Assembly (NCBI GenBank): GCA_963555755.3
Contig: OY820905.2
Location: 2,976,001-3,040,000 of the forward strand
Direction: 5' to 3'
Source of the DNA: Nitrospirales bacterium
GTDB lineage: Bacteria; Nitrospirota; Nitrospiria; Nitrospirales; UBA8639
Length of the DNA: 64,000 bases
The position numbers and the translations under genes are program-made. Positions 5,159-59,559 of the stretch are shown here, one piece after another. How positions within the stretch are numbered: the first letter of the stretch is position 1; every line of letters begins with the position of its first letter. Below the pieces are notes generated by a model. The model was given only the letters and a program-made list of their open reading frames with translations. It had not been told where the DNA came from and ran no database searches.

Positions 5159-5205
5159 TCGATTTAGGCTGGCTTTTTCTTTTCGTTTACGGCATACTCT
5201 TTTGC

Positions 5206-6953: not shown

Positions 6954-7004
6954 AAAAGAGGGCACAAAAAACCTCATGGAATCCCTTGCTTATAAAAAGA
7001 ATGA

Positions 7005-8016
7005 TATGCCTTCCCATTTAACTAAGGTTGCTTCAGTTTATTGAATCCCAAGGGTTTTGAGCTGCTGGTCAGGATTTTCAACAAACTCTGGAAGGTACTC
7101 ATTGGAGTCTCACGGCGGTTATAGCGAAAGACAAACTCATCAAGATAGTGTTGCAGGTATTTTGAATCCACTCCATGGTGAATCCCGTTCAGCCAGGTCT
7201 GCAGATTGCCGAACGCTCTATGGATGTGTGGAGCGTGCTTCCCAGCACTTGCTGGGTCACCCTGGGTCCGTCTCAGGTGTTCGTATCCTGCCAAGGCTTT
7301 TGCCGAGTATCCCTTCCAACCATCGGACTTGATCTTACTGCCCTCAGCGACATGGCTATTGAGGAATGCTTTGATCTCGTTCTCTCCAGCGTCTTGAAGA
7401 ATCGCTAATCGTAAACGCCCTGCTTTCTCTCGAAAGTGATCCCCTTGTGTGTACGTGACAATTTCTACGGCTCCGGCTATTAACGTCTTGGTTTTCGCTT
7501 TCGCGACGCCACGGCCCGTTTTGCCTTTTACCGGTCCACCGATATGGGTTTCATCGGCTTCAACTGTTCCTGCGAGCCGTTCACGGTTCTGTCGTACCAT
7601 TCCTCGTCGCAATCTGTGGAGCAAATACCAGGCGCTATCCACCTTCTTGATACTGAGTTGACGCTGCAATTGCACAGCACTGATGCCAGGTGTGTGCGTG
7701 GAGACGAAATAGGCAGCCCAAAACCAAAGCCGTAGCGGCAAGTGCGATCTATGCATCACTGTGCCGCTTAGCGGTGATGTCTGTCTATGACACGACGAAC
7801 ACTCAAACCGGAAATATTTTTTGAGCCACCAACCACCGCGATGACCGCAAGCTGGACACATAAACCCGTCTGGCCACCGAATCGCCCGCAAGTACTCGAA
7901 GCACGCTTCTTCGGTGTGGAACCTAACAGAAAAATCCAAGATATCAGCAGCATACCCTGTGTCCATAGTCCAGCAGACTAGTCTAGGGACTAACCTTAGT
8001 CAAATGGGAAGGCATA
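7005..8016 (-). mobile_element. IS1595-family IS
   Basis: 25-bp IRs TATGCCTTCCCATTT(A/G)ACTAAGGTT with one mismatch; 8-bp TSD AAGAATGA at 6997-7004 and 8017-8024. Confidence 0.95.
7022..7966 (-). CDS. IS1595 (ISXO2-like) DDE transposase
   Basis: Zn ribbon CPAC..CSSC, VEADET, SDGW.GY, YLDEFVFRYNRR. Confidence 0.93.
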   Translation of the reverse strand: MDTGYAADILDFSVRFHTEEACFEYLRAIRWPDGFMCPACGHRGGWWLKKYFRFECSSCHRQTSPLSGTVMHRSHLPLRLWFWAAYFVSTHTPGISAVQLQRQLSIKKVDSAWYLLHRLRRGMVRQNRERLAGTVEADETHIGGPVKGKTGRGVAKAKTKTLIAGAVEIVTYTQGDHFREKAGRLRLAILQDAGENEIKAFLNSHVAEGSKIKSDGWKGYSAKALAGYEHLRRTQGDPASAGKHAPHIHRAFGNLQTWLNGIHHGVDSKYLQHYLDEFVFRYNRRETPMSTFQSLLKILTSSSKPLGFNKLKQP

Positions 8017-33079: not shown

Positions 33080-34983
33080 CAGGGCCATTTCATTCTTTTT
33101 ATAAGCAAGGGATTCCATGAGGTTTTTTGTGCCCTCTTTTTCAGGGCAGGGCCATGCGGATGGCTAAATGGGGCTTGCCCCAGAGCAGTCTACACGCCTG
33201 CGCGATATTGGTGTAGCCTTTCAGGCGTAAGAGACTGATGGCATAGCGTCTCAGACAGGTCATGACCATTGGGCCATTGAGACTTCGTATCTGACTCCTG
33301 TCTTCATCAAAGGTGACGTCCAACACATAATGCTGCTTATTCTCCACACTCCAATGCTTTCGGTTTTGCGAGAGGATGGTCTTCGGCCCCGCCTTGTCTT
33401 TGGACTGACTCGTGACACCGCAGACCGCTTCGACGGTCGTGAGGCCCTGCTTGAGATGCGTCACTTCCCTCTCAATGCAGAAGACTTGCTGGACATGAGG
33501 AAAGTTGACATAGGCATTCAGGGAGTCATCGCACCAGATCCTGCGGGTCGTGATCTGCCCATGGCCTTTCTCGGTGGTGGCATAATCGCACCGGCGTGCT
33601 CGCAACGCTAAGGCCTCAATGTCGTGCTTCAAGGTGGGCTGGTTTCCCTTGACGGTGAAGACGAAGTCGGCGCCGCGTTCGTGCACCAGGTACTCGGCAA
33701 TCTCTTTCTGGGTGAGGAGCGCATCCGCCGTGATCACCTTCCCTGCGATCTCGAGCGCATCTAACAGGGGCCGCACGCAGGGGATCTCATTGGTCTTGGA
33801 GTGAACTTTTTTTGGGTGAGGTGGCGCCCGGCTTGATGGGTGACGGCGCTGAGGACGTGGGTCTGTTCGCTTGGGACCTTCGACGTCCCCCGCATGGTCT
33901 TCCCATCAATGGCAATGCCCTGATCCTCCCCGCCGAAGGTGTCCAGCCACCGGCCGAGCAGGGTATCGACTTCACAGGGGTCGACGGCCGTGATAAAGCG
34001 GTAAAGAGTGCTGCGGCTCGGGACGAGGTAGCGCCCCCCTCGCTGAGTACAGCCTAGCCGCTTGCGCATCGGCTGCGATAACTGCTGGGCCCAGTCCGAG
34101 ATCGCTTCATAGCCGCGCGCGCCGCACAAGGTGGCACAGCACATGATCGCCGTGAGGGCGCGTCGGGTGTGCCGTTGCCCTTGCAAATGGCGGGGATCGG
34201 TCAGCTGCACCACATACGTAAAGAGGGAGTCCGTCTGTTTTGTATTCAATCTCATCTGAGGCGCTTCTCCTTTCTGATAGGGCTGATCAAGCATCGGGCG
34301 TGCAAGGATCTCTCGGGCTTGGGGATGCAGCCGCACGACTAGGATGCGCTTCGGTCTCTCATGCTGAACATAACACGTGTTCGACTTGCGAAACCCTCGT
34401 GTCAGACCGAGCTCGTGCCACCCGGCGGCCCGATAGCAGGTCCCGGTGAAGCGGGCAGGATCGACGAAGGTCTCTAAGAGGAGCAAGGGGTAGCCGTGGT
34501 ACAGTTGCCAATCGGACGAGATCCGTTTCGCGCAGAGCGACAGGACTTTCGAGGCGAGGTTCTTTTGCGAACAGCCCGGCAGCATGAGAAACCGGGTGTT
34601 GTTGGCCAGTAAATGGAGTCGTTGCCATTGAAAACAGGGGGGCCAGCCGATCCAGTGGTCTCGCGGTCTCGATTTGAGGGCCGCCGCCGCAAACACCAGC
34701 AAGGCCAGCCAGCGATCCTGCACACAGGCGAGATATTGTATCGATTGGCCAATCAGCGGGGCATGACCGAGGTAGTGGTGTCTGTCGAGAAGGGTCTTGA
34801 AGGCGTCCTTTTCGTCTCGGACAATTGGGCGAACCACGACTTGCCTCAGATCAATGTCCGGCTGTCCGCTTGGCGATTCGTCTGGCATGCAAAAGAGTAT
34901 GCCGTAAACGAAAAGAAAAAACCAGCCTAAATCGATTATTCCTTATTATCTATAAAGTTACACTTTAATATGAAATAGCCCTG
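33080..34983 (-). mobile_element. ISAs1-family IS, copy 2 (1904 bp, intact)
   Basis: 14-bp IRs CAGGGC(C/T)ATTTCAT; 10-bp TSD TCCCTGTCGC at 33070-33079 and 34984-34993. Confidence 0.96.
33141..34888 (-). CDS. DUF4338-fused ISAs1 transposase (-1 frameshift at 33806-33813)
   Basis: Differs from copy 1 by two residues in ORF1 (A/S, F/C); ORF2 translation identical. Confidence 0.9.
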
Positions 34984-35471
34984 TCCCTGTCGCTAGATGA
35001 TGTTCAACCAAGCAGCGAAATCTCCTTTGAAGATGAATCCGTGGTTACGGCAAACTTTGAGACATTTGATGGTCTCAAAGGCACAGTGAAATTGCTTCGA
35101 AAAGACGAGAAGAATTACGTGAAAATATCGGCAGCCTTCAATGCTGCTCTAATCTGGAAACCCGAACCCGAAGAAATTTCGGAAACCGAAAAACCAGTTG
35201 AAGGAGAAAATGCTCAGGATAAAGACGATAACGAGATAGTAGAAGCTCCCAAACCTGAGAAACCCAAGGTAAAAATAGAGGCCGAAGTCAAAGCCGAAAT
35301 TGAAGCTCTAAATAAAAAAGTCAGTGAATGGATTTACATCATCCCCAAATTCCGCGCCGATACCATCCTCAAAAAACCTGAAGATCTTATTAAGAAATCT
35401 TAGAAACTACCTCTCAAAAAAATGGCCCTTTTCAGTCCCCCTCCTTTGTAAGGAGGGGTAAGGGGGGGGAT

Positions 35472-36222: not shown

Positions 36223-37489
<1,267 letters not shown>

Positions 37490-37509
<20 letters not shown>

Positions 37510-38726: not shown

Positions 38727-38860
38727 GTGGTCTATCCCCGAAATGGTGGACACCTCTGAAACGCGCGACAATGCGCATTGAGGGATGTCATGCCGAAGCA
38801 GTGAGGCTATACCTAACCATTCAAAGGAAAAGCCCCACCGCCGAAACGATGAGGCTCTCA
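38727..38860. repeat. Repeat C (IS3-like IR start) plus repeat-B terminator; second copy at 44719-44860
   Basis: gtggtct.tccc.gaaat.gtggacac...ctaac.attcaaaggaaaagccccaccg. Confidence 0.8.
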
Positions 38861-39564: not shown

Positions 39565-39664
39565 TGGTGTCTGTTCTAACGAACTCAGGACAGCTCAGCC
39601 CCAAAATGCCTGTCGCCGAACTCCCGCATTATGGAGGAAGGATACTGTATTTAGGTGTGATTGC

Positions 39665-39790
39665 AAAAGAAAAAGCCCCACCGCCGAAACGATGAGGCTC
39701 TCTGTTCGTGTAATGCTTGAATCGCCTACTCGTTTACGTCTTATTCTTCATCCGGTAGCCAACGAGTCCGACTAAGCCAGTGCCTAACAA
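39665..39790 (-). ncRNA. Repeat B full copy: candidate structured ncRNA with intrinsic terminator
   Basis: GCTTAGTCG/CGATT(C)AAGC and ACTCGTT/AACGAGT stems, then AGCCTCATCG-TTTCGG-CGGTGGGGCT-TTTT. Confidence 0.55.
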
Positions 39791-39852
39791 CAACCATCGT
39801 CACAGACCAATTATGCAACAACGCTTGCACAGGCTTGAACAATCCCAAAGGA

Positions 39853-40044: not shown

Positions 40045-40254
40045 GATTTTACCTCCCTGGATAGTGATAAAAATACACTCGATTGAGTGAAAAGGATGAA
40101 GGCCAACCTCAGAATTCATCTAGTGATGACAGGACTGGTTTCATCCTTTCGGTCAGAAATAACGTGTGTATGGCGAATTCCTAATCACCGCTGTCAGAAG
40201 CCCAATGAGCCGGTTGTGTCTGAGCTTTCCCCGTTATGGGTTTTTTTACCAAAC

Positions 40255-40310
40255 GGGCATCTGAAAAACTCTAGCCTTTCAATGCGGATGAATTTATAGA
40301 AGGGACAGGG
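40255..40310 (+). repeat. Repeat A copy 1 (partial)
   Basis: gcatctgaaaaact..agcctttcaatgcggatgaatttatagaagggacagg. Confidence 0.8.
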
Positions 40311-40563
40311 AGTTTTCCTGGGTTACCCTCGGGCGTCCTTTACGTTTTGGTTTCTCTGAAACATTGATGCTTTTGATTTGCACACCTGGGGGAAACCCCT
40401 GTAATGACATCATTAATGCTTGTCGGCGGACCTCATCCATTGAAACCTCTATGTGCTTTTTGGGTTGCTTCGTGAGTCCTATCCGCGGCAAGTTGATACT
40501 CTTTCTGCCCTCGCGAAAGTTCTTTTTATGTTTGTTGTCAGGCCAATGCTTCGAGAGTTTCAT
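40294..40563 (-). CDS. Hypothetical basic protein, 3' end runs into repeat A
   Basis: AAGGAG RBS; no recognised domain. Confidence 0.45.
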   Translation of the reverse strand: MKLSKHWPDNKHKKNFREGRKSINLPRIGLTKQPKKHIEVSMDEVRRQALMMSLQGFPPGVQIKSINVSEKPKRKGRPRVTQENSLSLL

Positions 40564-40631
40564 AATATTCTCCTTTTACCTGATCGTTCCTTATTATCGG
40601 GGGTCCCAATCAGGCCTGCTCCCTCACAGAT

Positions 40632-40922
40632 TCAGTTTTTGAGAGTTGGGCCTTTCCACATCAGATACGGAGGGTTTTTGAGCTCCACTGCCGATTTAGG
40701 GAATTGATGTTGCGCAGTGCCGTAAGCGAATTCTTGGGCCTCCAGACAGGTTGAACCATAAAAGTGCCCCGATACAGCTTTAAAATTCATTTGGCCTTGG
40801 CGGTCTGGGTTGGCCATATACAGTTCACAGATAAAACCATTTTCTTTGGAATAGTTGGTACTGATTAGTAGCTGGGACCCATCGGGAAGTGTGGTGATAG
40901 GATCGGTACTGAATGGGCTCAT
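40632..40922 (-). CDS. Hypothetical protein
   Basis: 96 aa, AAGGA RBS, protein-like composition. Confidence 0.65.
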   Translation of the reverse strand: MSPFSTDPITTLPDGSQLLISTNYSKENGFICELYMANPDRQGQMNFKAVSGHFYGSTCLEAQEFAYGTAQHQFPKSAVELKNPPYLMWKGPTLKN

Positions 40923-41368
40923 TGGTGTTCCTTTCTGTCACTTTCCTTGCAGATAGATCCTGGATTGAAACAAACCTTGGCCCGATTGGGTCAAGGCATT
41001 CCGGAAAAGGGGTGGGCAGGAAAAGGCAGACAAAAATGCTAAAATTAAGTCAGCCCAACTTCCTGCATTCCCTTGAAGATGTAGGAGCAATGAGCACTAA
41101 GGAGGGGTAAACACAAATGAACTGATCGTGCGAGGGAAGGACTTACAAATGTGAAGGCGCAATAAATAGGTTAGTCATCAGAACTCGCACAACAAAAAAT
41201 TTTAACATGATCTCTATCACTCGTCAAATTGCCGAGATTGGAATAAGGTCCATTATGTGGATCTCGAATGGTATTGTTACCTTAACGCAATTGGAACGCC
41301 GTAGGGCCTGTGCAGGGCGAATTGTTAATCATGCGACCCTTGGGGTGTAAAACAATCCCTGACAATAT

Positions 41369-41447
41369 CGTATGGGCAAAAAACTAATCTAGCCTTGGGG
41401 TATCTGAAAAACTCAAGTATTTCAATGCAGATGAATTAATGGAAGGG
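41369..41447 (+). repeat. Repeat A copy 2
   Basis: cgtatgggcaaaaaactaatctagccttggggtatctgaaaaactcaagtatttcaatgcagatgaat...gaaggg. Confidence 0.85.
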
Positions 41448-41742
41448 CCTGACTTGTGCCGTTTGAAAATACCTTGCCTGGAGGCCGGATGAGTGTTGTG
41501 ACCAGACGACATTGGCTATCTTTTATTCCTCTGTTGCGATATATTGAGGAAACTTATCGCGTGGGGCTTGGCGATGAGAAATCTAATTACCAAAGCCCGC
41601 AACTGGTGTTGTTTTGCCTGAGGGATAACTCGGAAGTGTCTGACTTCTGTCGCCTGAATGCAGCGTCCGCGGACTACTCCTTCCCAATGTTTCACCCTTC
41701 TCGAGCCTAAGACAATATCATTTTTTCAAAAGGAGGAATCCC

Positions 41743-42066
41743 ATGAGTTCAAAATTGTATGTAGGTGGACTGCCGTATTCCACGACTCAAGCAGAATTAA
41801 CCGACCTGTTTTCGGCACACGGCACCGTCCAATCAGCGAACGTCATTAGCGACAAATACACCGGCCAATCCCGTGGATTTGGATTTATCGAAATGTCGTC
41901 CGGAGAAGAAGCTCAAGCCGCAATTACAGCCTTACATTCTACGGAGTTAGGTGGCCGAACGTTGACGGTCAACGAAGCCAAACCCCAAGCCCCACGTACT
42001 GGTGGTGGGGGTGGAGGCTATGACGGTGGTGGGGATTTTGGAGGTAAACGCCGCAGCAGGTTCTAA
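41743..42066 (+). CDS. RRM (RNP-1) RNA-binding protein with Gly-rich tail
   Basis: LYVGGL (RNP2), RGFGFIEM (RNP1); AAGGAGG RBS. Confidence 0.95.
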   Translation: MSSKLYVGGLPYSTTQAELTDLFSAHGTVQSANVISDKYTGQSRGFGFIEMSSGEEAQAAITALHSTELGGRTLTVNEAKPQAPRTGGGGGGYDGGGDFGGKRRSRF

Positions 42067-42090
42067 CGATAACCCCAATACGTCTGGTAA

Positions 42091-42123
42091 AAGGGAGAGG
42101 TCAAAAAGGTCTCTCCCTTTTTT
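42091..42123 (+). terminator. Intrinsic terminator of the RRM gene
   Basis: AAGGGAGAG...CTCTCCCTT plus T run. Confidence 0.75.
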
Positions 42124-42149
42124 ATCCCGAATTCAGCAGTTGAAAAGGT

Positions 42150-42234
42150 CGTATGGTCACAAAACCCATCCAGCCTTGCGGTATCTGAAACATTCAAGTT
42201 TTTCAATGCGGACGAATGTATAGAAGGGACAGGG
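42150..42234 (+). repeat. Repeat A copy 3, followed by repeat E copy 2 (42241-42335)
   Basis: cgtatggtcacaaaacccatccagccttgcggtatctgaaacattcaagtttttcaatgcggacgaatgtatagaagggacagg. Confidence 0.88.
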
Positions 42235-42384
42235 ATGGTACTACGTAAATTTACCTATTTCGAAATTTGAAAAAATAGCAAGTGTGCTACAAGGCCCCCG
42301 GCCGTTGACCAAAACAATTGTGGGGATCGACTTTTCCGCAGCACATACTTCTGTGTGAAGGCCACTTGTAACAAGTGACCAACG

Positions 42385-42508
42385 AACAAAGCCCCACCGT
42401 CGCAACGATGAGGCTCGCTGTTTGTGTAACGCTCGTATCGACTACTCGTTGACGCCTGCACCTCCCTCATCCGGTAGCCAATGAGTCCGACTAAGCTAGA
42501 GCCTAACA
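42385..42508 (-). ncRNA. Repeat B full copy 2
   Basis: Same architecture as 39665-39790; conserved GCTTAGTCGGACTC.TTGGCTACCGGATGA core. Confidence 0.55.
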
Positions 42509-42619
42509 GCAGGATCGTGATACGTTTGGTTTTCTAGAGCTGCCATGAACCTGGGCACAAGGGTCGGTCAGACCCGTCTCGCAGGGTGAATTCCTGCATG
42601 TCAGACGGCGGAGCCCGCA

Positions 42620-42690
42620 GATTGACCCCTCACCGCGTTCTTTGGTACGTTGCGGTCTAGTCAAAAAGGCCTTTTGAATTTCCTATTCCC
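42620..42690 (+). mobile_element. IS91/ISCR-like oriIS end remnant
   Basis: aaaaaggccttttGAATTTCCTATTCCC resembles the ISCR oriIS terminus (GAA.TTCCTATACCC). Confidence 0.5.
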
Positions 42691-42790
42691 AAACCAACAG
42701 ACTTGAATAAAGCAGCAATCCATGTCACCTTCACACCATGAAGCAAACCCATCAGAGGAATAACCGCACAGCAAATGCGGAGGATGCCAA

Positions 42791-44569
42791 ATGCCGTTGA
42801 AGAAAAACAGCGGTAAACGGCGCTTCCAACTCATTTTGATAAAACCGTCTCATTACGACGATGATGGATATGTGATCCGTTGGTGGCGTGTTTTAATTCC
42901 CTCTAACACGCTTGCCGCTGTGTACGCCATTGCGGCAGATTGTGCTGAACGCCAGATCTTAGGCGCAGATGTCACCATCGACATCGACGTGATTGACGAG
43001 ACCAACACCCACGTCGACACGGCCGCACTTCTCGCCAATCTTCAACGTCACGACAATTTTGGTATGGTCGCTCTTGTCGGCGTCCAGTCAAACCAGTACC
43101 CGCGTGCTCTCGATATTGCCCGGCCGTTCCGTGGGGCCGGCGTTTTGGTTGCCATAGGTGGTTTTCATGTATCGGGCTGCCTGTCGATGCTGGATGGGCG
43201 GGCGATTGATCTCGACGCTTGCCGCAAGATGGGCATTTCCATGTTTGCGGGCGAGGCCGAGGGCTCGTTTGACGAGGTGTTGCGCGACGCAGCTAAAGAT
43301 CAGCTCGCACCGATCTATGACTTCATGAAGGATCTGCCCGGCATGGAAGGCACACCCGTGCCGTTCTTGCCCAAACGTTTTGTCGAGCGCACGCTTGGCC
43401 TCTCCACCAGTTTCGACGCCGGCCGCGGCTGCCCTTATCTGTGCTCGTTTTGCACCATTATCAATGTACAGGGTCGCAAGTCGCGCTTTCGTAACGCCGA
43501 CGATATCGAGCATCTTGTCCGCCTCAACTGGGCCCAGGGCATCCACAAATTTTTCATCACCGACGATAACTTCGCCCGCAACAAGGAGTGGGAAGCGATC
43601 TTTGATCGCCTGATCGAGTTACGCGAGGAGCACGGAATTCCACTCGGCCTGATGATTCAGGTCGACACTTTGTGCCACAGAATTAAGAATTTCGTCGAGA
43701 AGGCGAAGCGTGCCGGTGTCACGCGCGTCTTTATCGGATTGGAGAATATCAATCCGGATAATCTTATGGCGGCGAAGAAGCGCCAGAACAAGATCATCGA
43801 GTACCGCAAAATGCTGCTCGCCTGGAAGGCGCAAGGCATCATCACGCTTGCCGGGTATATCCTGGGCTTTCCGGCTGATACGCCAGAGACGATCAGGCGC
43901 GATATCGCGATTATTCAGGAGGAACTGCCGCTTGATATTATGGAGTTTTTTTGCCTGACACCCCTGCCCGGTTCGGAGGATCATCAGATCTTATGGAACA
44001 AGGGCATTGCGATGGACCCTGATCTCAACATCTACGACTGTGAAAATGTCTGTACCGCTCATCCAAAGATGACAAAGCGCGAGTGGGAGGACATCTATCG
44101 CGAGGCCTGGTCGCTCTATTACACGCCCAAGCACATGAAAATACTGCTGCGCCGCGCAGCCGCCACCGGCGTACCAATTGGCAGCCTGGTCAAGCTTTTA
44201 GTGACATTCGCGACTTCGGTCCGCCTTGAGGGCGTTCATCCCTTGCAGAGCGGCCTCTTGCGTCTCAAACATCCGTCCGAACGACGCCCTGGCTTGCCGC
44301 GCGAGAACCCTTTAATTTTCTGGCCGCACTTCGTCTGGGAAACGCTCAGAAAACAAGTCATCTTTGCCGGTGCAATTATCGCGCTGCTGCCGTCGGCTTT
44401 TGCTCTTTCGCGCAACCCTGCTGCACGAAATTACATGGATCAGGCCCTCACTCCGGTGAGCGAGGAGGAATATGAAACGCTGGCCCTGTTCACCCAGAAT
44501 GACGCAGCCCAGGCAGCTGTCCCGCGTTCTAAAAAACACGCCGCATTGAAGGTTTATGCTACAGAATAA
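42791..44569 (+). CDS. Cobalamin-dependent-type radical SAM protein
   Basis: GRGCPYLCSFC, DDNF, FIGLEN, GYILGFP, TPLPGS; N-terminal B12-binding-like domain. Confidence 0.9.
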   Translation: MPLKKNSGKRRFQLILIKPSHYDDDGYVIRWWRVLIPSNTLAAVYAIAADCAERQILGADVTIDIDVIDETNTHVDTAALLANLQRHDNFGMVALVGVQSNQYPRALDIARPFRGAGVLVAIGGFHVSGCLSMLDGRAIDLDACRKMGISMFAGEAEGSFDEVLRDAAKDQLAPIYDFMKDLPGMEGTPVPFLPKRFVERTLGLSTSFDAGRGCPYLCSFCTIINVQGRKSRFRNADDIEHLVRLNWAQGIHKFFITDDNFARNKEWEAIFDRLIELREEHGIPLGLMIQVDTLCHRIKNFVEKAKRAGVTRVFIGLENINPDNLMAAKKRQNKIIEYRKMLLAWKAQGIITLAGYILGFPADTPETIRRDIAIIQEELPLDIMEFFCLTPLPGSEDHQILWNKGIAMDPDLNIYDCENVCTAHPKMTKREWEDIYREAWSLYYTPKHMKILLRRAAATGVPIGSLVKLLVTFATSVRLEGVHPLQSGLLRLKHPSERRPGLPRENPLIFWPHFVWETLRKQVIFAGAIIALLPSAFALSRNPAARNYMDQALTPVSEEEYETLALFTQNDAAQAAVPRSKKHAALKVYATE

Positions 44570-45003
44570 TCAGGGGGGCAATCCGGGCTTTTGATGCGGT
44601 GCGGACCTTGGTGGATTTTCGCGCCTTTTAGATACCTTGGAAGGGGGGCAAGTCTTGACTTAATATATTAACTTCCTTTTTCGGTTTTTCCCCATTCAAG
44701 ACTGTGGTCGCATCACTAGTGGTCTGTCCCAGAAATTGTGGACACATCCGAAGCGCACGAGAGTGCGCAATGCGAGCTGTCCTACAAAGCAGTGCCGCTC
44801 TAGCTAACTATTCAAAGGAAAAGCCCCACCGTCGCAACGATGAGGCTCTCTGTTCGTGTGGGGAATAGAGTTAGACGGTTGAGTGTGCCAACCTCTGTTC
44901 CATTACGGGCATCCCAACTGTGGAAGAGGTTTTAAGTCACGACGATTCACAGTCGGCTCACTTGGGAGACCTCGCACCTCAAACCCTGGTGTATCTTGGG
45001 AAA

Positions 45004-45697
45004 TCAATTCACGTCTCCCTTGCGGGCAATATGGGCGCGGAATACTTGCACCCGATTGTTCCCTTTATCAACGACGTAGAGAGTTCCTTGATCATTTGCC
45101 GCACCACTTGTCGGTTTGCGAAATTCTCCTGCTTTGTCCCCTCGGTGTCCGAAAGCGCCTAAAAATTCTCTTTGTTTGCTAAATATTTGAATCCTGTGAT
45201 TCTCATAGTCTGCAACGTAGATATGACCAAAGTGGTCTTGGGTGAGCCCGCTGGGATAGCGAAACTCACCTGCGCCTGTGCCAAAGGCGCCAAAGGTATT
45301 GATAAATTTTCCTGAGCTGTCAAAAATCTGGATACGATGATTTTTAAAATCACAGACAAAAATTTGATCGTTCTGGTCGAGAAAAATACAAATGGGGTTA
45401 TGCAATTGACCGGGGCTGCTGCCAAAACCACCAAACTGCCTCAGAAATCTGCCTTGCTGATCAAAAACCTGCACCCGGTGATTGCCCCAATCCGCCACAT
45501 AGATATTATGGTGTGAATCTAACGCTATTCCACGCGGATTTTTAAATCTGCCTGGCTTCGTACCCCTTCCCCCAAAGTGTTTGAGGGAATTTCCCTGCCT
45601 ATCAAGAATCTGTATGCGATCATTGCCTGTATCGGCAACGTATAAGTTCCCCTCCTTGTCAATGATGACTGCATCGACCCAAGCGAATTCTCCTTCC
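45004..45697 (-). pseudogene. NHL-repeat beta-propeller protein, 5'-truncated at repeat A copy 4
   Basis: Five G.F..P.G.......YVAD..NHRIQ.F repeats; the predicted start lies inside repeat A. Confidence 0.8.
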
Positions 45698-45781
45698 CGT
45701 ATGGTCAAAAAACTCATCTAGCCTTGCGGTATCTAAAAAACGCAAGTTTTTCAATACGGATGAATGTATAGAAGGGACAGG
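45698..45781 (+). repeat. Repeat A copy 4
   Basis: cgtatggtcaaaaaactcatctagccttgcggtatctaaaaaacgcaagtttttcaatacggatgaatgtatagaagggacagg. Confidence 0.88.
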
Positions 45782-45950
45782 TAGACCAAAAGGCCTGCTT
45801 TCGGGTGTGTGGTGCTGTAAGGGAGGCCATGGAGTCTTAGGTTGCCGGGCCTCGCAAGGAAGTAGAAAAGGAATCACTCAACTAAAAGGCTTGCTCTGTC
45901 TATATCAGGCGAAGTACAATTTTGTTTCGCATTCCAAGGGAGGAGATGAT

Positions 45951-46718
45951 ATGCCACAGCTGCTTCATGCTCCATCGGAACAAGAGGCATCTTTAGACCG
46001 TGATCTCGAGCGATTGCGAGAGCAGCTTGAAACCATCAAGTCTTTCCTGGTGAGACAACCCTTAGAGGGAACCTTGATGGACTTCGACTGGGAGACGGAA
46101 GATATAATCCACCGGATGTTTGGAAGTTCTTCCCCTCTGGTGGTGATTTATGACTATGCCCAAATTGGGGAGGCAACAGGGATGGTCAATTTGCCGGAGG
46201 AGGCGCCGGAAGGTGTCACTCACGCCGCGGAGCGAGAAACCCTAAGACAACGTCAACGAGTACTAGAAATTTGTATGGGAGATCTTGAAACTCGCCGGGC
46301 AGCCTTGGCTAGGGGGGAACGCATCAAAACCGCGACTGGACCACGAGTAGCCGATTACATGTCAACAACGGTCCACTTCGTTCATGTGGACGCGACACTG
46401 AAGGAAGCGGCACTGTTCTTTCAAAAACAGAAGATCGGCTCGCTGCTGGTCAAAGGAGGGGAGCACTTTATTGGAAGCATTACCGAGACTGAATTGAGCC
46501 GAGAGGTTGTGGCAGGGGAAGTGGATCCTTTCACGACCAGGGTGATCACTTGCATGCGCGAGCCCATTATCACCATTGAAAGTAGTGATCCCATCGTCGA
46601 GGCCGTCCGACTCATGAAAGAGAAGGCCACCCGTCATTTGGCAGTGGAGGAACGTGAAACGATTGTGGGTGTCATCTCGGCCTCTGATATTTTGCGTTAT
46701 TATTCTGGGGTTACGTAA
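45951..46718 (+). CDS. CBS-domain-pair protein with helical N-terminal extension
   Basis: VADYMS...IGSLLV...GSITETEL, M..PIITI, RHLAV...GVIS; GGAGG RBS. Confidence 0.85.
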   Translation: MPQLLHAPSEQEASLDRDLERLREQLETIKSFLVRQPLEGTLMDFDWETEDIIHRMFGSSSPLVVIYDYAQIGEATGMVNLPEEAPEGVTHAAERETLRQRQRVLEICMGDLETRRAALARGERIKTATGPRVADYMSTTVHFVHVDATLKEAALFFQKQKIGSLLVKGGEHFIGSITETELSREVVAGEVDPFTTRVITCMREPIITIESSDPIVEAVRLMKEKATRHLAVEERETIVGVISASDILRYYSGVT

Positions 46719-46776
46719 ACCTTCTTTTTTGTGTCCTGCCCCTAAAATCGCGCCAGGTTTTGTGGGAGCATTCCGT

Positions 46777-46843
46777 CCGTACGCTCTCCCGTCATGTAGA
46801 ATTTTTCTCATCGTGTACAGGGCTGTCCCAACTCCCATTGGCC
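46777..46843. repeat. Repeat D copy 1 (direct repeat of 50893-50959)
   Basis: ccgtacgctctcc.gtcatgtagaatttttctc.tcgtgtacagggctgt. Confidence 0.85.
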
Positions 46844-46941
46844 TGACAATACACCCAAAAGATTTCAAAAAGTCATTCCTTGATGTGAGGGCTTTTTGAT
46901 CGCTCCCATTCTGGTGTAGACTCAACTCTCTTTTTCTCATT

Positions 46942-47064
46942 GGGGGGTGTTGAAAAAGTCCGCCAGCGACGTTCTCGGCCCTTTGTCGTGCTCACGTACT
47001 CCAGTATGCTCCGCGCGCCAAAGGTCCTGCGGCCTTGCTGGACGAATCTTTTTGAACACCCCCC
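46942..47064. mobile_element. Palindromic MITE
   Basis: IRs GGGGGGTGTTGAAAAAG / CTTTTTGAACACCCCCC; a degenerate relative at about 63120-63285. Confidence 0.75.
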
Positions 47065-47166
47065 TTGCTCTTGAGATTGCATTGGCTGCCTCGGATGTTC
47101 ATAACCACTGAAAATTTTCAATTTTTCAACAGGCCCTCATAAGGATTAACACGGTGGCCTTCATTT

Positions 47167-47724
47167 ATGCCTTTTTTACCTGATGATCTCCAAGCCGAGC
47201 AGGCCAAGTGGCGAAAGGTTCCTCGACAGCGCCCGGCCGACATGGTCAACCCTGGTCCCGGACAGGAGTCTGTATGGGATTACCCGCGGCCCCCACGAGT
47301 TGAGTCTGTTGCGAAACGGCTCCGCGTGGAGTTCGGAGGCATGGTGTTGGCAGATACGTCTAAAGGGTTGCGGGTGATTGAGACGTCTAGCCCCCCGGTG
47401 TATTACTTTCCACTTGAAGATGTTGTGTTGACGTACTTGGAACAGACTAGACAATCCACCTTTTGTGAATGGAAAGGTGTGGCTTACTATTGGTCCATTC
47501 GGGTTCAGGGTCGAGTGGCCACACATGGAGCATGGAGTTATCCCGATCCAACTTCTGGGTATGAGATAATTGGGAATTATGTCGCCTTCTATCCGAGCCT
47601 GATGGACGCATGCTATGTGGGTGTTGAATTAGCAAGCCCCCAAGCCGGTGATTTTTACGGTGGGTGGATTACGCCAGAGATTACTGGCCCCTTCAAAGGT
47701 GAGCCCGGGACAGAGGGCTGGTAA
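47167..47724 (+). CDS. DUF427 family protein
   Basis: ESVWDYPRPP, ETSSPPVYY, CEWKG.A.Y, AWSYPDP, FYGGWIT. Confidence 0.92.
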   Translation: MPFLPDDLQAEQAKWRKVPRQRPADMVNPGPGQESVWDYPRPPRVESVAKRLRVEFGGMVLADTSKGLRVIETSSPPVYYFPLEDVVLTYLEQTRQSTFCEWKGVAYYWSIRVQGRVATHGAWSYPDPTSGYEIIGNYVAFYPSLMDACYVGVELASPQAGDFYGGWITPEITGPFKGEPGTEGW

Positions 47725-47879
47725 GTGTGTCATCGCTGATTGCTTTCCACTGACTACGATCATTCTACCCTCCACGAAACTTCGTTCTTCCCCGATATCT
47801 CGCGGCTTCTTTGGCATCTCGACGGACAAACAAAAAATTAAATTTTTCATACTATCAATAACTTATGCCATCCACGAAC

Positions 47880-47897
47880 TTGGCATGGGACATGCTA
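47880..47897 (+). promoter_or_regulatory. Sigma54 (-24/-12) promoter
   Basis: TTGGCATGGGACATGCT: GG-N10-GC, upstream of AGGAGG and ATG 47962. Confidence 0.6.
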
Positions 47898-47961
47898 TCT
47901 ATACATGTGAGAAAGATCATAATTGGAAAACGACAGCAGCAACCAAAAGGAGGTGTGTACG

Positions 47962-48462
47962 ATGTTCAGCGTGGAAGAACAAACCGGAACCAGAAATCGC
48001 CCCATTCAAAAGCAAGCGAATACTCAAGTGGAGCATAGTCCTTCGGACTCCTCAGAATTCGAGACCTCCCAACACTGGATGGCCACACTTCAAGGGATTT
48101 ACGGCGAAGCGGTGATTCGGTACGAACAAGGCGCTCGTGGTGCCGACGACGTGATTCCTGAAAATGGTCTGGCATTTTTGGCTTCTATTGAAACGACCGC
48201 TCAGGAGATGTACGACTTTGTCGAGGATTGGTCCGAAGTAGGTGAACCACCATTTGGTATCGTCGCGGCGATCACAGCAGTTCGGTGGAAATACTTTTTG
48301 ACCATGCAACATGGCCAGCCATCGGCACAAACTATTTCACCATCAACGCTTCCGCCGGGTTCTGCAGAGCTAGGCGGGTACTGGTGCCTACCGCGTATCA
48401 TTGCCAAGGCTCGCGCCAAACTTCGTGGTGAATTGTCCCCTGAGTTGATGGGCAGCAGTTAG
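47962..48462 (+). pseudogene. Chimeric or truncated DUF5069-like ORF
   Basis: FLASI..TAQEMYDFVED, LGG...LPRIIAKARAKLRGEL, then premature end. Confidence 0.6.
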
Positions 48463-48662
48463 AAGACCTTTTTGCCACGCATGATACGGTTGAGTCGGCG
48501 CGGGTGATCACAGACAAATTCAGGATCATACAGAATATATGGTTCTATCCTACCGCCATCCAATTCTGGCCACATGGAGTTTCTTGGCCATGGCTTAGGA
48601 TGGTGAGACCGATCTCCTCCATTGTACCTCGGAACTTCATATGCCTAGAACCATATATTCTG

Positions 48663-50691
48663 GTGCGACCAGGCAAGGCTGGTCTGATGGGAAAGGAGGC
48701 TGCGATGACTCTTTGAAAATCAGTTCATGGTCCAGTGGGTGCAAAACCCACCCAACCAAAGCGGAGCCCGGCAGGGTGGTAGCAAGCCTTGCGCCAGCGC
48801 GGGTAACCGTTATGGCGATGCGTAGGCATGCGAGCGTATGGGCCGCAGGAAATGCAGCCTCGAAAAGTGGAATATCCTGGATGTCTAGGGGCTCGGAATC
48901 TCTGAAGACCACGGCGTCGTCGCCGGTATGGGGCAAGGCGGCGGGGCATCCGGCGGGGTGAACGACTGGGGCACGTACGAAGAGGATGATCCAGGAACCT
49001 GGGAGGCCCTCATTTCTCCCTGGGAGATACCCGGTGCCACGGGGACCCGGTGACCACTCTCCGACGAACACGCGGACGCGGGTGCCTGCGTGACTCGGTG
49101 TAGAACAAGCACTCGCCTCAGGGTAGGCCGACGGCAAGGGGAACCGGAGCTGCGGCTGAGGGGGATGAGGGAGTCGGAGGGCGGCATAGGAGCGACAACG
49201 TCGGGGAACGGGGTGGTGCCTGGACCCGACCGAGCAAAGGCTGCCCGTGTTGATAGGAACGTCAGGAGGGAACCATGACCAAGGCATTGATGTGGGATTC
49301 CATGTCACCGGAACGTTTGACGGTAGCGGAACGAGCGAAACGGGAACCCGAAGGACGATGTCACGCCATGGCCCATCTCATCGATGTGCCAGCTCTGACA
49401 CGCGCCTACCGACGACTCCGCAGGAATGCCGCGGTAGGTGTGGATGGTATCACCAAGGAGCAGTATGGGCAGGAGCTGGAGCGGAATCTCCAGGATCTGC
49501 ATCACCGGCTGAAGACGAAGCGGTATCGTCATCAACCGATTCTCCGGGGATATGTGCCAAAGGGGCAGGGTCGGCACAGGCCGATTGGGATATCGGCGAC
49601 AGAGGACAAAGTGGTCCAAGGGGCGCTGCGGGACGTATGGGAGGCCATATACGAGACGGAGGTTACCGATAGCTCGTATGGGTTTCGACCGAAACGCGGT
49701 GCGCATGACGCGCTTCGGACTTTGAACCGAGCGGGGCATGGTGGGGAAATGAACTGGATCGTGGAGGCGGACATCGTCTCGTACTTTGACAGCGTGGATC
49801 GCACCAAGCTGAAGGAGATGATTCAGAAACGGGTCGCCGATGGGGCGCTCATGCGGCTCATTGGCAAATGCTTGAATGTGGGCGTGCTGGACGGCGAGGG
49901 GTATTCCGAGCCGGACGTGGGCACGGCCCAAGGATCGGTCCTCTCCCCGCTCCTCGGGAACATCTACCTCCATTACGTGCTCGATCTCTGGGTAGAATCC
50001 GAAGTGAAGCCACACCTCCGGGGGAAGTGCATCTTCGTCCGGTATTGTGATGACTTCATCTTTGGTTTCGAATGCCAGGACGATGCGGAGTGGGTGATGC
50101 TGCTGCTGGGAAAGCGGATGGGAACATATGGACTGACCCTGCATCCGGACAAGACTCGCCTGTTGTACTTTGGGCGACCGTTCAAGGGGCAGCAGGCAGG
50201 CAAGGGGCCGGCCAGTTTCGATTTCCTCGGGTTCACGCTGTAGTGGAAGCGGTCCCGATATGGACGCTGGATCTTGGCATTCAAGACCCGAGGTGCACGC
50301 CTCACGCGGGCCATTCGGTCTGTGTACGACCGGTGCCGACGCCATCGGCACCGGTCGGTGAAGGAGCAGCACATGGCGCTCGTGAGGCACGTGCGCGGCC
50401 ACATGAACTATTTTGGCGTGAACGGGAATATCCGTAGCCTGCATCTTCTTCTGGTGCAGGTTCAACGTGCCTGGTTCAAGTGGCTTCGGCGTCGCAGCCA
50501 ACGGACGCGCCTCACGTGGGAGAGGTATCAGGACCTGTTACGGGACTTTCCTCTTCCCCGTCCACGGATCGTCGTCCAGATCTGGGGGCGGTAACCCGCG
50601 AGCCATATCAGCGGAGGAGCCGGATGGTCGAAATGTCCTTGTCCGGTTCTGGCGAGGGCCTCGGCTGGGTGACTGGCCGGGGCTACTCTAC
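48663..50691 (+). mobile_element. Group II intron
   Basis: 5' GTGCG; domain V GAGCCGGATG..GAAA..GTCCGGTTC; domain VI ending CTACTCTAC; RT ORF inside. Confidence 0.92.
49275..50594 (+). pseudogene. ltrA: Group II intron RT/maturase (no endonuclease domain) with in-frame TAG at 50241-50243
   Basis: AVGVDG, RPIGI, SYGFRP, GTAQGSVLSP, RYCDD, FDFLGFT; maturase domain continues in frame. Confidence 0.9.
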
Positions 50692-50989
50692 TATGACCCG
50701 TTTCTAGGTTCAAGCACTCACGTGCGTGCCCCCAAGAACCCTCCAGGTGAAAAACCTGTTTTCCGGAGTTGGGTTAAGCGTCTGTCGAAAAAACCCCTCT
50801 CACTTTTGAATCTTTTTATCTTGTCCCTGGCATATTGATCATGGAACCGGCAAAAGTGCCAATTATGGGACCTTGACCTTACCTTGCACCACCCGTACGC
50901 TCTCCTGTCATGTAGAATTTTTCTCGTCGTGTACAGGGCTGTTTCAGCCCCCACTGGCCGTTTGAGTTTTTTAACCATATGAGAATATT

Positions 50990-51904
50990 GTGAACATCAC
51001 GGTTATCGGAGGATCAGGCTTCATCGGTCGGTCTCTCTGCCAATCTTTGGTGCAAGAAGGCCATCAGGTGACTGTCCTCTCGCGAAACCCAGAAAAAGCC
51101 CGCACCCGTCTTGGAGCTTCCATTTCCGTTTTCAAATGGAATCCCCTCCCTTTGGGAACACTGGAAAAAGTATTCGCAGATACGGATGCCATCGTTAATC
51201 TGGCTGGAGAGCCTATTGCCGATGCGCGATGGACGAAGAACCGAAAAGAAGTCCTGCGTGACAGCCGCGTTGGAACGACCCGCCTGGTCGTGAATGCTCT
51301 TTCAAATATTTCCAAGCGACCACGCGTGTTGATGAATGCGTCTGGAATTGGATTCTACGGCCCACAAGAATTGACCTCGGTGACGGAGCAAACCGGACCG
51401 GGGATCGGATTTCTGGCAGAGCTTTGCGTGGATTGGGAGCAGACAGCCGGGCGGGGGGAAGAGTATGGAGTCCGAGTGGTTCAGCTTAGAATGGGGATGG
51501 TTCTCGCACGGGATGGAGGAGCCTTGCCACGGATGCTACTGCCCTTTCGTCTCTTTATCGGTGGTCCTATCACCCCAGGCCACCAGAAGGTTTCATGGAT
51601 TCATTTGCAAGATCTTATAGCTCTCATAAAGGTCACTCTTTTAGATGAAACCATTCATGGAGCCATCAATGCCGTGTCCCCTTATCCGGTCACCATGCGT
51701 GAATTTTGCCAGACCTTAGGCCATATTTTGGGGCGACCCTCATGGCTCCCCGTCCCAGCCTTTGCTTTAAGGTTTGGACTGGGAGAACTGGCTACCCTGT
51801 TGACCACGGGCCAACATGTGGAACCTCTGGTTGCACAACGGTTAGGTTTCCAATTCGCCTACCCGACTTTAACACCGGCTTTGCAATCCATATTATTAAA
51901 GTAG
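50990..51904 (+). CDS. TIGR01777-family NAD-dependent epimerase/oxidoreductase
   Basis: GGSGFIG, NLAGEPI...RW, SRV..T, GFL..LC..WE, SWIH..D. Confidence 0.92.
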   Translation: MNITVIGGSGFIGRSLCQSLVQEGHQVTVLSRNPEKARTRLGASISVFKWNPLPLGTLEKVFADTDAIVNLAGEPIADARWTKNRKEVLRDSRVGTTRLVVNALSNISKRPRVLMNASGIGFYGPQELTSVTEQTGPGIGFLAELCVDWEQTAGRGEEYGVRVVQLRMGMVLARDGGALPRMLLPFRLFIGGPITPGHQKVSWIHLQDLIALIKVTLLDETIHGAINAVSPYPVTMREFCQTLGHILGRPSWLPVPAFALRFGLGELATLLTTGQHVEPLVAQRLGFQFAYPTLTPALQSILLK

Positions 51905-51947
51905 ATTGAAATCCCCTCATGTTGAGACCGCTGCTTGGCGTGATTGA

Positions 51948-52030
51948 CCTGTCCCTTCTATACACTCATCCGCATGGCAAAACTTGAGTTTTGTAGATGC
52001 CGTAAGGCTGGATGAGTTTTTGACCATACG
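51948..52030 (-). repeat. Repeat A copy 5 (inverted)
   Basis: Reverse complement: cgtatggtcaaaaactcatccagccttacggcatctacaaaactcaagttttgccatgcggatgagtgtatagaagggacagg. Confidence 0.88.
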
Positions 52031-52207
52031 ACGATAGCCCCCTCTTGATTGAGAATGTAGAGATACATAGAACGAGCGTGCAGATCAATGCCGCAGTACA
52101 ATCGGTGATGGTTGGTGTAGAATCGCATGAAGTTGCCTCCTTTGTAAGTGTTGGGTTCTGGGATCTCACAATGGAATTCTAAAGAAGGAGGCCTCAATAC
52201 GTATCAA
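52031..52207 (-). mobile_element. IS110/IS1111-family left end with transposase 5' fragment (ATG 52128)
   Basis: MRFYTNHHRLYCGIDLHARSMYLYILNQEG (DEDD RuvC-like start); GGAGG RBS; truncated by repeat A. Confidence 0.85.
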
Positions 52208-54733: not shown

Positions 54734-54783
54734 GTGTCCCTTCTATTGATTCGTCCGTATTGAACCGAGGTTTAAATACTTAA

Positions 54784-54924
54784 GGGCACCTCTAAAAACC
54801 GTCCTTTTCCGTGATGGCGGCGTCAGCCGCGTGCTCAAATCCTCATGTATTCGCCCATACACTCCGGTTTTCCGCGCGCGGCTTCCTTGCCCTCACAAAA
54901 AATGCCTGGTTTTTAGAGGTGCCC
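54784..54924. mobile_element. MITE with TTAA target duplication
   Basis: 17-bp perfect IRs GGGCACCTCTAAAAACC; TTAA on both sides. Confidence 0.85.
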
Positions 54925-55069
54925 TTAAATTTTTTGTGACAACGACGAATTCGAGACCCACAGAATGCCAGGAGGGAATTTAGGTGGGGAATTTCGTTCG
55001 TGGCACCACCTGACTATTGCTTCAGTTGAACGCTCCACCCTTCCCGTACAAAAAAGGACAATGCAAACC

Positions 55070-56903: not shown

Positions 56904-57234
56904 TTAGCGCACCTGGCAAAACAAAAAAATGTCTCATCACCACTAAGGTGACCACGACTTTTTTTATTTCACCATGCACACCAATAGCTTACACGGCTTT
57001 TTTGTGCCCAACTGCCGTTTCTAGGTTCATGCGACGGGAGACCCCATCAGGATTTCCTCGTCAGGCAATCTGTTTACGACATAGCGGAAAACCATTACTA
57101 TAGCTCATGACTTCCGTAGGTATTGTCAACTTAACGAAAATTCCACCCCGAACACACAATTCGCCTCGAGATAATCCATTGATTTATCAGGACGCTGTGT
57201 GCTCTACACGTTCAATCAGCCAAATCTAGCTTAA

Positions 57235-57293
57235 GGGCACCTCTAAAAACCGTCCTTGCCCTCACAAAAAATGCCTGGTTTTTAGAGGTGCCC
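57235..57293. mobile_element. 59-bp internally deleted copy of the 54784-54924 MITE
   Basis: Same IRs and TTAA flanks; deletion between TCCTT microhomologies. Confidence 0.85.
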
Positions 57294-57384
57294 TTAAGTT
57301 GACAATACCTTGACAGGGATTGTTTTACACCCCAATGGCGGCATGATTAGCAATGCGCCATGCAGACCCGGAAGAAGGTAGTAC

Positions 57385-58324: not shown

Positions 58325-59559
58325 GGAGATGATATCGTGTTGTTCCAGGATCTGTAGAATGGCGAGAACAGACCCCATACCGTTCTTGACCTTATCTTTG
58401 ATAGGAGGTCACACGACGTCAAGCGATCAACAGCGCCGGCGAGTAGTGCCGGTTCAGGTAGGGGGCGACGAGGTAGCGGTATTCACGTTCGTGAGCAAAT
58501 TTGTAGAATGTTGGGAAAAGTCAATGGTCATGCCTGCCCCTAATTCTAATCAGCGGTGTCAAAATGAGGTGAAATTTGAGGGCAACAACAGCCCAACTAA
58601 CCCCTGTTCTTTTCCCTAGCTCAAGACGTGTGATGGTGAATGATGTTGGGGGAGCCTTCCCAATAATTTCATTGACAGCAGGAAATAAGAGGCATAGCAT
58701 TTCCTTGTTGGGATGAAGAATCGTACTCTGGGAATCGCAAAGGAATTGAGCGAGGAGGCGGTTCCAGAAATAACAAGAGGGGGTCACATGATGAACGACC
58801 TCAATCCACCAAACCAGTAAGGCCCGCGGCGAGCGAAGTCGTGTGGTTCTTGTTTAGGCCTGGTAAGGAGAGTTGTCGATAGGAAGCCTCTCAGAAATAC
58901 CGAACATGCCCGTAGGCATGAACAAGGTCAGGAAGACCAAACTATAATTCTGGTGGCTCCACCGAGAGGAAGAAAAGTTTAAAAGAAAAGAAGAAAAGGA
59001 TTGTAATGATTGCAAGGAGGAACAATATGGAAAGAGTCCACTCTCCGGCAATAGATCCTGTATAGAAGAAAAGAAAACAAGGCTTCGCCGCCATCGGGTC
59101 AAAGAAAAAAATGTGAAGTACTGACGGTGTATGTGTCAGGAGAACTGCGGGCTCTCTTTCTTGTGAAAGAGGGCCCGTGGTGTTTGAAACCACGTTGCGA
59201 CTCCAAAGAAACTGACAGACCGTACCCGTATGATCAAAAAACTCATTCGAGGAAAGCAAAGGCAAAACTCGCTCATTGACTCCCCGGAAGTGGCAATTAG
59301 TAGTTCGCCACGCCAGGTAGTGGAAAAATCAATATGCGTGCCTAACCTACTTCCATGCCCTGTCGAGTCGACGGCAGGGCCTGGTCATGCGTGATTACTT
59401 CACTGACATCATTAGCGCTGGATGTATCATCCTCAGTGCAATCAATGATGCCCTGACAACTTTGTCGAAGAATGGGAAAGTCGTCCCCTGGGTGGCTGAG
59501 TAATTCTTGAACTCGTTGAAAGGTCCGATCCTCGAGCGTCGGTTTTTTTAAGCGTCGGT

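Follow-up and report, generated by a model that had tools for sequence, protein, structure and literature searches.

The window analysed here, which is the whole 64,000-nucleotide stretch of DNA (contig OY820905.2 of a Nitrospirales bacterium, positions 2,976,001 to 3,040,000), contains five copies of a short repeat, termed Repeat A, in a tRNA-Met island. An original prediction, made from the letters alone, had proposed that the repeat is a folded single-stranded site that assembles gene modules. Our comparisons indicate instead that Repeat A is very probably a mini-element without a transposase, composed of the right end of one insertion sequence (IS) family (family A) and the left end of another (family B), and that its ends drive rearrangement. 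All five of the predicted copies were recovered, as were the two cut genes adjoining the CGT tip of the repeat, one encoding an NHL-repeat protein and the other the start of an IS110 transposase (52030-52128). They are listed below, where D denotes a further IS family and G008 a related genome.

45698..45779, plus strand: full Repeat A copy; 45698-45731 is the family A right end with the last transposase codons (minus strand, YRKAR-stop) and about 45735-45779 is the family B left end
42150..42231, plus strand: full Repeat A copy, A end and B end
41369..41450, plus strand: full Repeat A copy, its B tip decayed; nearby are a D-type end (41309) and a separate remnant of an A right end (41462-41508, minus strand)
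51950..52030, minus strand: full Repeat A copy, inverted; the orthologous G008 copy has the A-side flank in common and a different B-side flank
40256..40307, plus strand: remaining B half of a Repeat A copy that the A tip of a neighbouring D-A mini-element has cut
45001..45697, minus strand: 3' part of the NHL-repeat gene, about 107 N-terminal codons being lost exactly at the CGT tip (45697/45698); the gene is intact, with 338 amino acids, in G008
52031..52128, minus strand: first 33 codons of the IS110 transposase, ending at the CGT tip; the junction is identical in G008

The unit is 80-84 bp long (typically 82 bp) and runs from CGT to ACA, the trailing GG belonging to the flank. A profile search of the 4.6-Mb genome gave 30 matches at E<=2, thirteen of them near-full, and the reversed genome gave a single weak match (E 1.1). 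Repeat A is therefore not a product of chance, and it is not confined to the tRNA-Met island, as most of its copies lie elsewhere. The copies occur in mixed orientations and are decayed, with a mean column identity of 81%. Ten of the 41 genomes searched, the own genome counted, contain the repeat; every one is a member of the same family, the relatives being Nitrospirales. A further Repeat A tip was found directly behind the CBS gene near 46740 in contigs of three out of four sediment sequencing runs, where only one side is seen. No Rfam covariance model matched any of the copies at E<=1 in the part of the window between 36000 and 60000.

A pattern made from the first 21-24 bases of Repeat A was run on a species-genome collection and returned 110 stretches, some of which are chance matches. 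The stretches have only about 22 bases in common with the Repeat A end unless they come from Nitrospirales or from one Binatia bin. At several of the pattern loci the motif closes a gene on the opposite strand that ends in ...GGLLxYYxREAA/G-stop. This gene encodes the family A transposase, a protein of 353 amino acids with HTH_32 and rve_3 domains and D-D-35-E spacing of the aligned catalytic residues, and its stop codon overlaps the CGTATGG end. The rve_3 domain scores above the Pfam cut-off in all three parent proteins tested. Since a matching left end lies about 140 bp upstream of most full genes, family A is an IS of about 1.22 kb bounded by CGT...ACG ends. Compared with a family A right end, the last 30 nt of the 45698 copy agree at 26 positions.

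Relatives of family A are widespread, with 221 found in one metagenome scan, 80 of which were kept, and transposase matches at E<=1e-30 in 8 of 401 genomes of the phylum. A Streptomyces plasmid holds many distant transposase relatives (34% identity), all in diverged copies. Viral contigs yielded one partial family B gene and no family A gene. Family B is represented by a 1149-bp IS with TGTCCC...GGGACA ends in G022, where it lies upstream of a family A element in the same direction, and its transposase is 29% identical to that of family A. Twenty-seven of the first 37 positions of the family B left end are invariant across three Repeat A copies and three B left ends, and this genome has a broken family B gene located behind a B end. 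Two further rve ISs of about 1.2 kb, families C and D, have end types of their own and start with TGT as family B does. The two halves of Repeat A also occur separately, as ends of full-length ISs in many phyla; both halves thus match the ends of DDE-type ISs, a match that the original prediction had itself named as speaking against it. Intact transposases and exact end sequences of these families are known from outside this genome, among them family A transposases at L223:4025-5092 and in L131 and a family B transposase at L223:6173-7228.

Ends of different types are the rule in short units of this kind. All 48 units of 60-130 bp with facing ends that were found in the genome and loci carry ends of two types (31 A-B, eleven A with C or D, and six B with C or D), the C and D labels being soft as the two end patterns overlap and the count outside the own genome being biased by the queries used. 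An unbiased scan of the own genome gave the same picture, with 20 mixed-ended units out of 20. Derivatives with two ends of the same type do exist and are longer (159 and 382 bp). At locus L174, A and B genes each have separate ends.

Breakpoints of synteny coincide with the ends of these families. In a count against 84 loci of relatives, nine of 189 breakpoints fell within 3 nt of a terminus, whereas 0.25 were expected after local shifts (maximum 3 in 500); many of the other breakpoints belong to other ISs. The cut NHL gene is one case. G008 has the whole gene back to back with a methyltransferase gene, and in this genome the DNA upstream of the methyltransferase stops at a B tip (54734/54735); the 757 bp that lie in G008 between the NHL-side and methyltransferase-side breaks have no match in this genome. 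In two strains that are 99% alike (G016 and G254), a family A IS stands in place of about 5.3 kb and homology ends at CGT. Orthologous copies were also observed in which one flank is swapped exactly at the tip. The original proposal of module assembly or deletion thus stands as far as the ends mark breakpoints, but the restriction to CGTATGG and the tRNA-Met island does not, since breaks occur at both end types and throughout the genome. Repeat A marks rearrangement breakpoints and probably makes them as well.

The elements bear few traces of conventional insertion. Flush direct repeats of 4-35 bp are absent from all 28 full family A elements, which were drawn from 65 near-full genes (the others lack an end or enough flank), and from all 27 mini-elements, which bears out the earlier statement that Repeat A has no target duplication. 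Among the full family A elements a direct repeat of at least 3 bp was never seen and one of 2 bp was seen once, which is no more than in mismatched pairs. Neither was a target duplication visible in eight elements of families B, C and D, and long duplications of the IS1202 type were dismissed as none was found up to 35 bp. An unoccupied homologue of one flank was found for 21 of the 83 complete elements, and in none of the 21 was the other flank present there. Eleven pairs of elements share one flank and three share both. Nonetheless both tips are precise in 27 distinct copies that have different flanks on either side.

The flanks read W-N-C-Y toward the tip, with C at position -2 in 173 of 230 A ends; the mini-elements have it in 16 of their 27 A flanks and in 21 of their 27 B flanks. 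Taken by themselves, they suggest blunt two-ended insertion at CC^GG. This would predict about 75% G at position +2 of an unoccupied site, and the unoccupied sites contradict it, as the base there is C in 17 and G in two of 26 cases (p 5e-5 for the excess of C). Insertion with a fixed stagger would predict a G-rich position upstream; none was found between -45 and -1 (maximum 0.32), and no mirrored target motif was seen up to 45 nt. From these flank, duplication and empty-site data together, we infer that the ends are joined one at a time. Taken alone, this joining step is about as likely to be right as wrong. A CG dinucleotide as the duplicated target, as in IS630-like elements, was ruled out, since an additional C remains before CGT where ends are joined inside other copies. 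No convincing tip-to-tip circle junction was found in the genome or in the loci.

The best surviving alternative keeps the same identity for Repeat A and assigns it ordinary chemistry, in which a miniature inverted-repeat transposable element (MITE) inserts both ends at one site, as in IS481 or IS3, or forms cointegrates as IS26 does, and the duplications are later lost or split by adjacent deletion or recombination. We regard this as a serious possibility that is nevertheless somewhat doubtful. The precise tips with different flanks on both sides fit it, the enzyme is of the standard DDE type, and replicative transposition would also leave each copy with one old and one new flank. Single-end transfer is a property of IS26 and IS911. 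IS-driven adjacent deletion and IS26-type cointegrates are like the present elements in having breakpoints exactly at the tips, no flanking duplication and replacement of one flank. For evolving E. coli, excerpts of PMC11708052 report that the duplication was lost through adjacent deletion in 14 of 14 IS150-deletion events. On the other hand, no duplication was found among 55 elements, no mirrored target motif exists at any offset up to 45 nt, and the continuation of the unoccupied sites is unlike the right flanks. In families with adjacent deletion or IS26-type cointegrates clean insertions with duplications are also common, whereas none was found here.

With the origin of both halves, the precise tips at breakpoints, the lack of duplications and of clean empty sites, and the one-sided flank swaps all read from sequence, the following route may be proposed for Repeat A as a mixed-end mini-element. 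It would have arisen, through an internal deletion, from B and A elements that were nested or lay next to each other, and the arrangement in G022, with B upstream of A in the same direction, is one from which such a deletion would give Repeat A. Transposases supplied in trans are then likely to join each end to new DNA separately. The enzyme would nick at the 3' ACG or ACA of one end, the nicked strand would be transferred to W-N-C-Y^N-C, and replication or repair by the host would resolve the branch into a deletion or another rearrangement. Such separate joining of ends would explain the deletions and the cut genes at the tips.

Several points weigh against this account. Only extant genomes were compared, so that the transposition event itself is inferred. 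Some of the 21 unoccupied flanks are other repeats, which may have come in later. The relatives, at 80-99% identity, are for the most part represented by fragmented assemblies, so that clean empty sites could be missed. Three pairs of elements share both flanks, and it is well documented that target duplications can be lost through subsequent adjacent deletion or IS-IS recombination (excerpts of PMC11708052). One-ended joining by itself leaves the rise in copy number unexplained. In the loci examined there was no autonomous element that combines a B left end with an A right end or that encodes two transposases, and a tblastn search of this genome found no intact transposase of families A to D, so that activity would be past or transient. 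The query bias of the mini-element count belongs here too.

As a class, IS ends and their miniatures are ordinary. Environmental bacteria carry the present rve elements in abundance, their scores lie below those required by the curated models for IS481 and IS3, and their ends explain puzzling repeats and broken genes. A DDE family that leaves no duplication, is not observed as a clean insertion and gives rise to mixed-end miniatures only would represent an unusual transposition route. A bolder extension, which we put forward tentatively and consider rather unlikely, is that a widespread unnamed branch of DDE ISs never inserts with two ends, each end being transferred alone to W-N-C-Y^N-C, so that the elements act as rearrangement engines. 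If this were true, ends of different families would be free to pair into mixed mini-elements, each tip served by its own transposase, and these mini-elements would cut genes and stitch islands together.

Inert debris was considered as a second alternative, in which the mixed units were made by nested insertions and host deletions and have spread only with duplicated DNA. The absence of an intact transposase from the genome and the decay of the copies agree with it, as does a unit with a small gene between such ends that is duplicated at two places. However, in most copies both tips are joined precisely to different DNA with a common target preference, and between orthologous copies one flank has been exchanged precisely at the tip. 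We therefore find it improbable.

The hairpin on which the original prediction was founded did not withstand testing. The predicted long stem is the minimum-energy DNA fold in only two of seven strands, both of them from the 51948 copy, and RNA folds are similar. Fold z-scores across the seven Repeat A strands range from +1.17 to -3.12, the strands of the 51948 copy having -2.2 and -3.1. Covariation was tested for the proposed 20 pairs in 30 of 36 Repeat A copies, one copy being kept per orthologous pair and two damaged copies being excluded. Paired cells amount to 80.1% in the 30 aligned copies and 79.6% in shuffles, 115 of 500 shuffles reaching that level. Changes on both sides were found in 7 of 592 cells (reached in 37 of 500 shuffles), and the covariation score is 0.084 against 0.074 in shuffles (reached by 34 of 500). 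RNAalifold predicted no pairs on the aligned copies. As covariation is not above that of shuffles and no consensus fold exists, the covarying-hairpin model was rejected.

The self-complementarity of Repeat A itself is real, as slid controls pair at only 35-47%. Contrary to the original statement that terminal inverted repeats are absent, the tips align as an imperfect inverted repeat, with 12 of 22 positions identical in the 45698 copy and an inner TCATC common to both. Conservation is highest in the unpaired tips (0.94 versus 0.86 in the central stem), as would be expected of protein-binding ends. Read against the parent elements, the apparent outer stem is the TCATCC motif carried by both ends at positions 17-22, and the apparent bulge is leftover coding sequence, namely the last transposase codons of family A.

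A folded single-stranded site similar to attC or to HUH-transposase ends, served by the tyrosine integrase of the island or a Y1 enzyme and assembling gene modules, is thus very improbable: the pairing of 80% of cells, the one copy that folds well, the genes that break at a tip, and an integron integrase and 17 Y1 matches in the genome speak for it, but covariation and a consensus fold are lacking, each half is an IS end that occurs by itself on full-length ISs of many phyla, both tips are sites of breaks, most copies lie outside the island, and the island integrase scores 51 bits against an integron cut-off of 265. For a recombinase or HUH gene accompanying the copies, which the original prediction proposed to look for, there was no support either. 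The only full integron integrase above the cut-off (G000 C1:318997-319857) has no copy near it, and all 17 Y1 matches are more than 20 kb away from any copy, the nearest being about 23 kb from a partial one, in a search that did not include Y2 (IS91) genes.

Among known systems, the parents are closest to IS481 and the related IS3 and IS1202, with which they have in common a single open reading frame, helix-turn-helix and rve DDE domains and a length of about 1.2 kb. The layout of the ends is also alike, with imperfect terminal repeats that are short and carry a terminal trinucleotide as well as an inner motif around position 20 (excerpts of PMC10045372 and 10.1101/2022.12.17.520857). The same excerpts give target duplications of 2-15 bp, mostly 6 bp, for IS481 members (PMC10045372), and duplications of 5-28 bp with TGT ends for IS1202 members (10.1101/2022.12.17.520857). 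The families studied here differ from both in having no target duplication, and TGT...ACA termini are present in families B, C and D, whereas family A has CGT...ACG. The parent proteins score 89.4, 95.2 and 91.9 bits against the NCBIfam IS481 model, whose cut-off is 224, and 67-84 bits against the IS3 model with a cut-off of 160. Because the score and duplication tests failed, the parents were not filed as IS481 members. They resemble IS481 and IS1202 in enzyme and end layout, and are described here as unclassified IS481-like elements.

Repeat A resembles prokaryotic MITEs in being short, non-coding, multi-copy and derived from IS ends, and it is predicted to share their dependence on a transposase acting in trans (MITE properties from excerpts of PMC10969869). 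It differs from them in that its ends come from two IS families, direct repeats of at least 4 bp are absent (0 of 27), there is no stable conserved stem-loop, and no clean insertion was seen. The attC sites and HUH ends (IS200/IS605, REP) are likewise short, dispersed, partly self-complementary and found beside gene modules. Repeat A has no covarying fold, forms no array of directly oriented sites and has no linked integrase or Y1 gene, and its sequence is explained by DDE IS ends. A literature search, which covered mostly titles and the beginnings of abstracts, found no paper naming families A to D or mixed-end MITEs, and ISfinder may hold names for them.

Seventeen ends of the four IS families were located in the window, and all but one lie between 40165 and 59227. 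Besides those of the Repeat A copies, further ends, which the original prediction had missed, lie at 40165, 40255, 41309, 41508, 50981, 54735, 54962, 57366 and 59227. The units to which they belong, other than those given above, are as follows.

40165..40255, strand not assigned: mixed-end mini-element of 91 bp (D end and A end), a sister family of Repeat A
50960..50981, minus strand: decayed A-type end before an epimerase gene; G008 homology stops at the tip
54735..54962, plus strand: unit with a B end and a C end, interrupted by an unrelated repeat of about 150 bp; the B tip lies 1 nt before the methyltransferase start codon and G008 homology stops there
57340..57366, minus strand: D-type end, within which an A tip is joined in G018
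59227..59250, plus strand: A-type end of a further mini-element; G006 homology stops at the tip

Tips were repeatedly found joined inside other ends of this superfamily, often right after TCATCC or ATGCC (L046:4001, L270:777, window 40255 and G000 C1:38114), and such joining would build nests of ends. At one and the same base, a given flank adjoins a B tip in this genome (G000 C1:2525396) and an A left end in G011 (L274:1199). The duplicated unit with a small gene is 540 bp long, the gene lying behind an A-D mini-element, and is present twice with 97% likeness (G000 C1:2063950-2064493 and C1:2537126-2537669), so that cargo is duplicated beside the ends. The small gene reads like a histone-like HU protein, which is our presumption.

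The stretch bracketed by the 45698 and 52030 Repeat A copies also holds a group II intron (48742-50691, plus strand) with Rfam matches to D1-D4 and D5, the reverse-transcriptase frame of which stops early at 50243. A phage-type tyrosine integrase gene, which is not an integron integrase by the score given above, overlaps the tRNA-Met with its end (36223-37509). Two identical inverted copies of a 1.9-kb ISAs1-like element were found at 5107-7008 and 33086-34987, the first open reading frame of which has a DruA-like domain before a transposase-associated domain.

Finally, other repeats occur in the window. Miniature repeats that are far more abundant than Repeat A lie at 54774-54934 and 57230-57300 (about 250 genome matches) and at 46945-47075, and one of these is polymorphic relative to G005 (L285). 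A second repeat family occupies 38796-38859, 39639-39792, 42388-42511 and 44787-44889; the 3' codons of a small gene, which ends near 39740 and 42455, form part of it.

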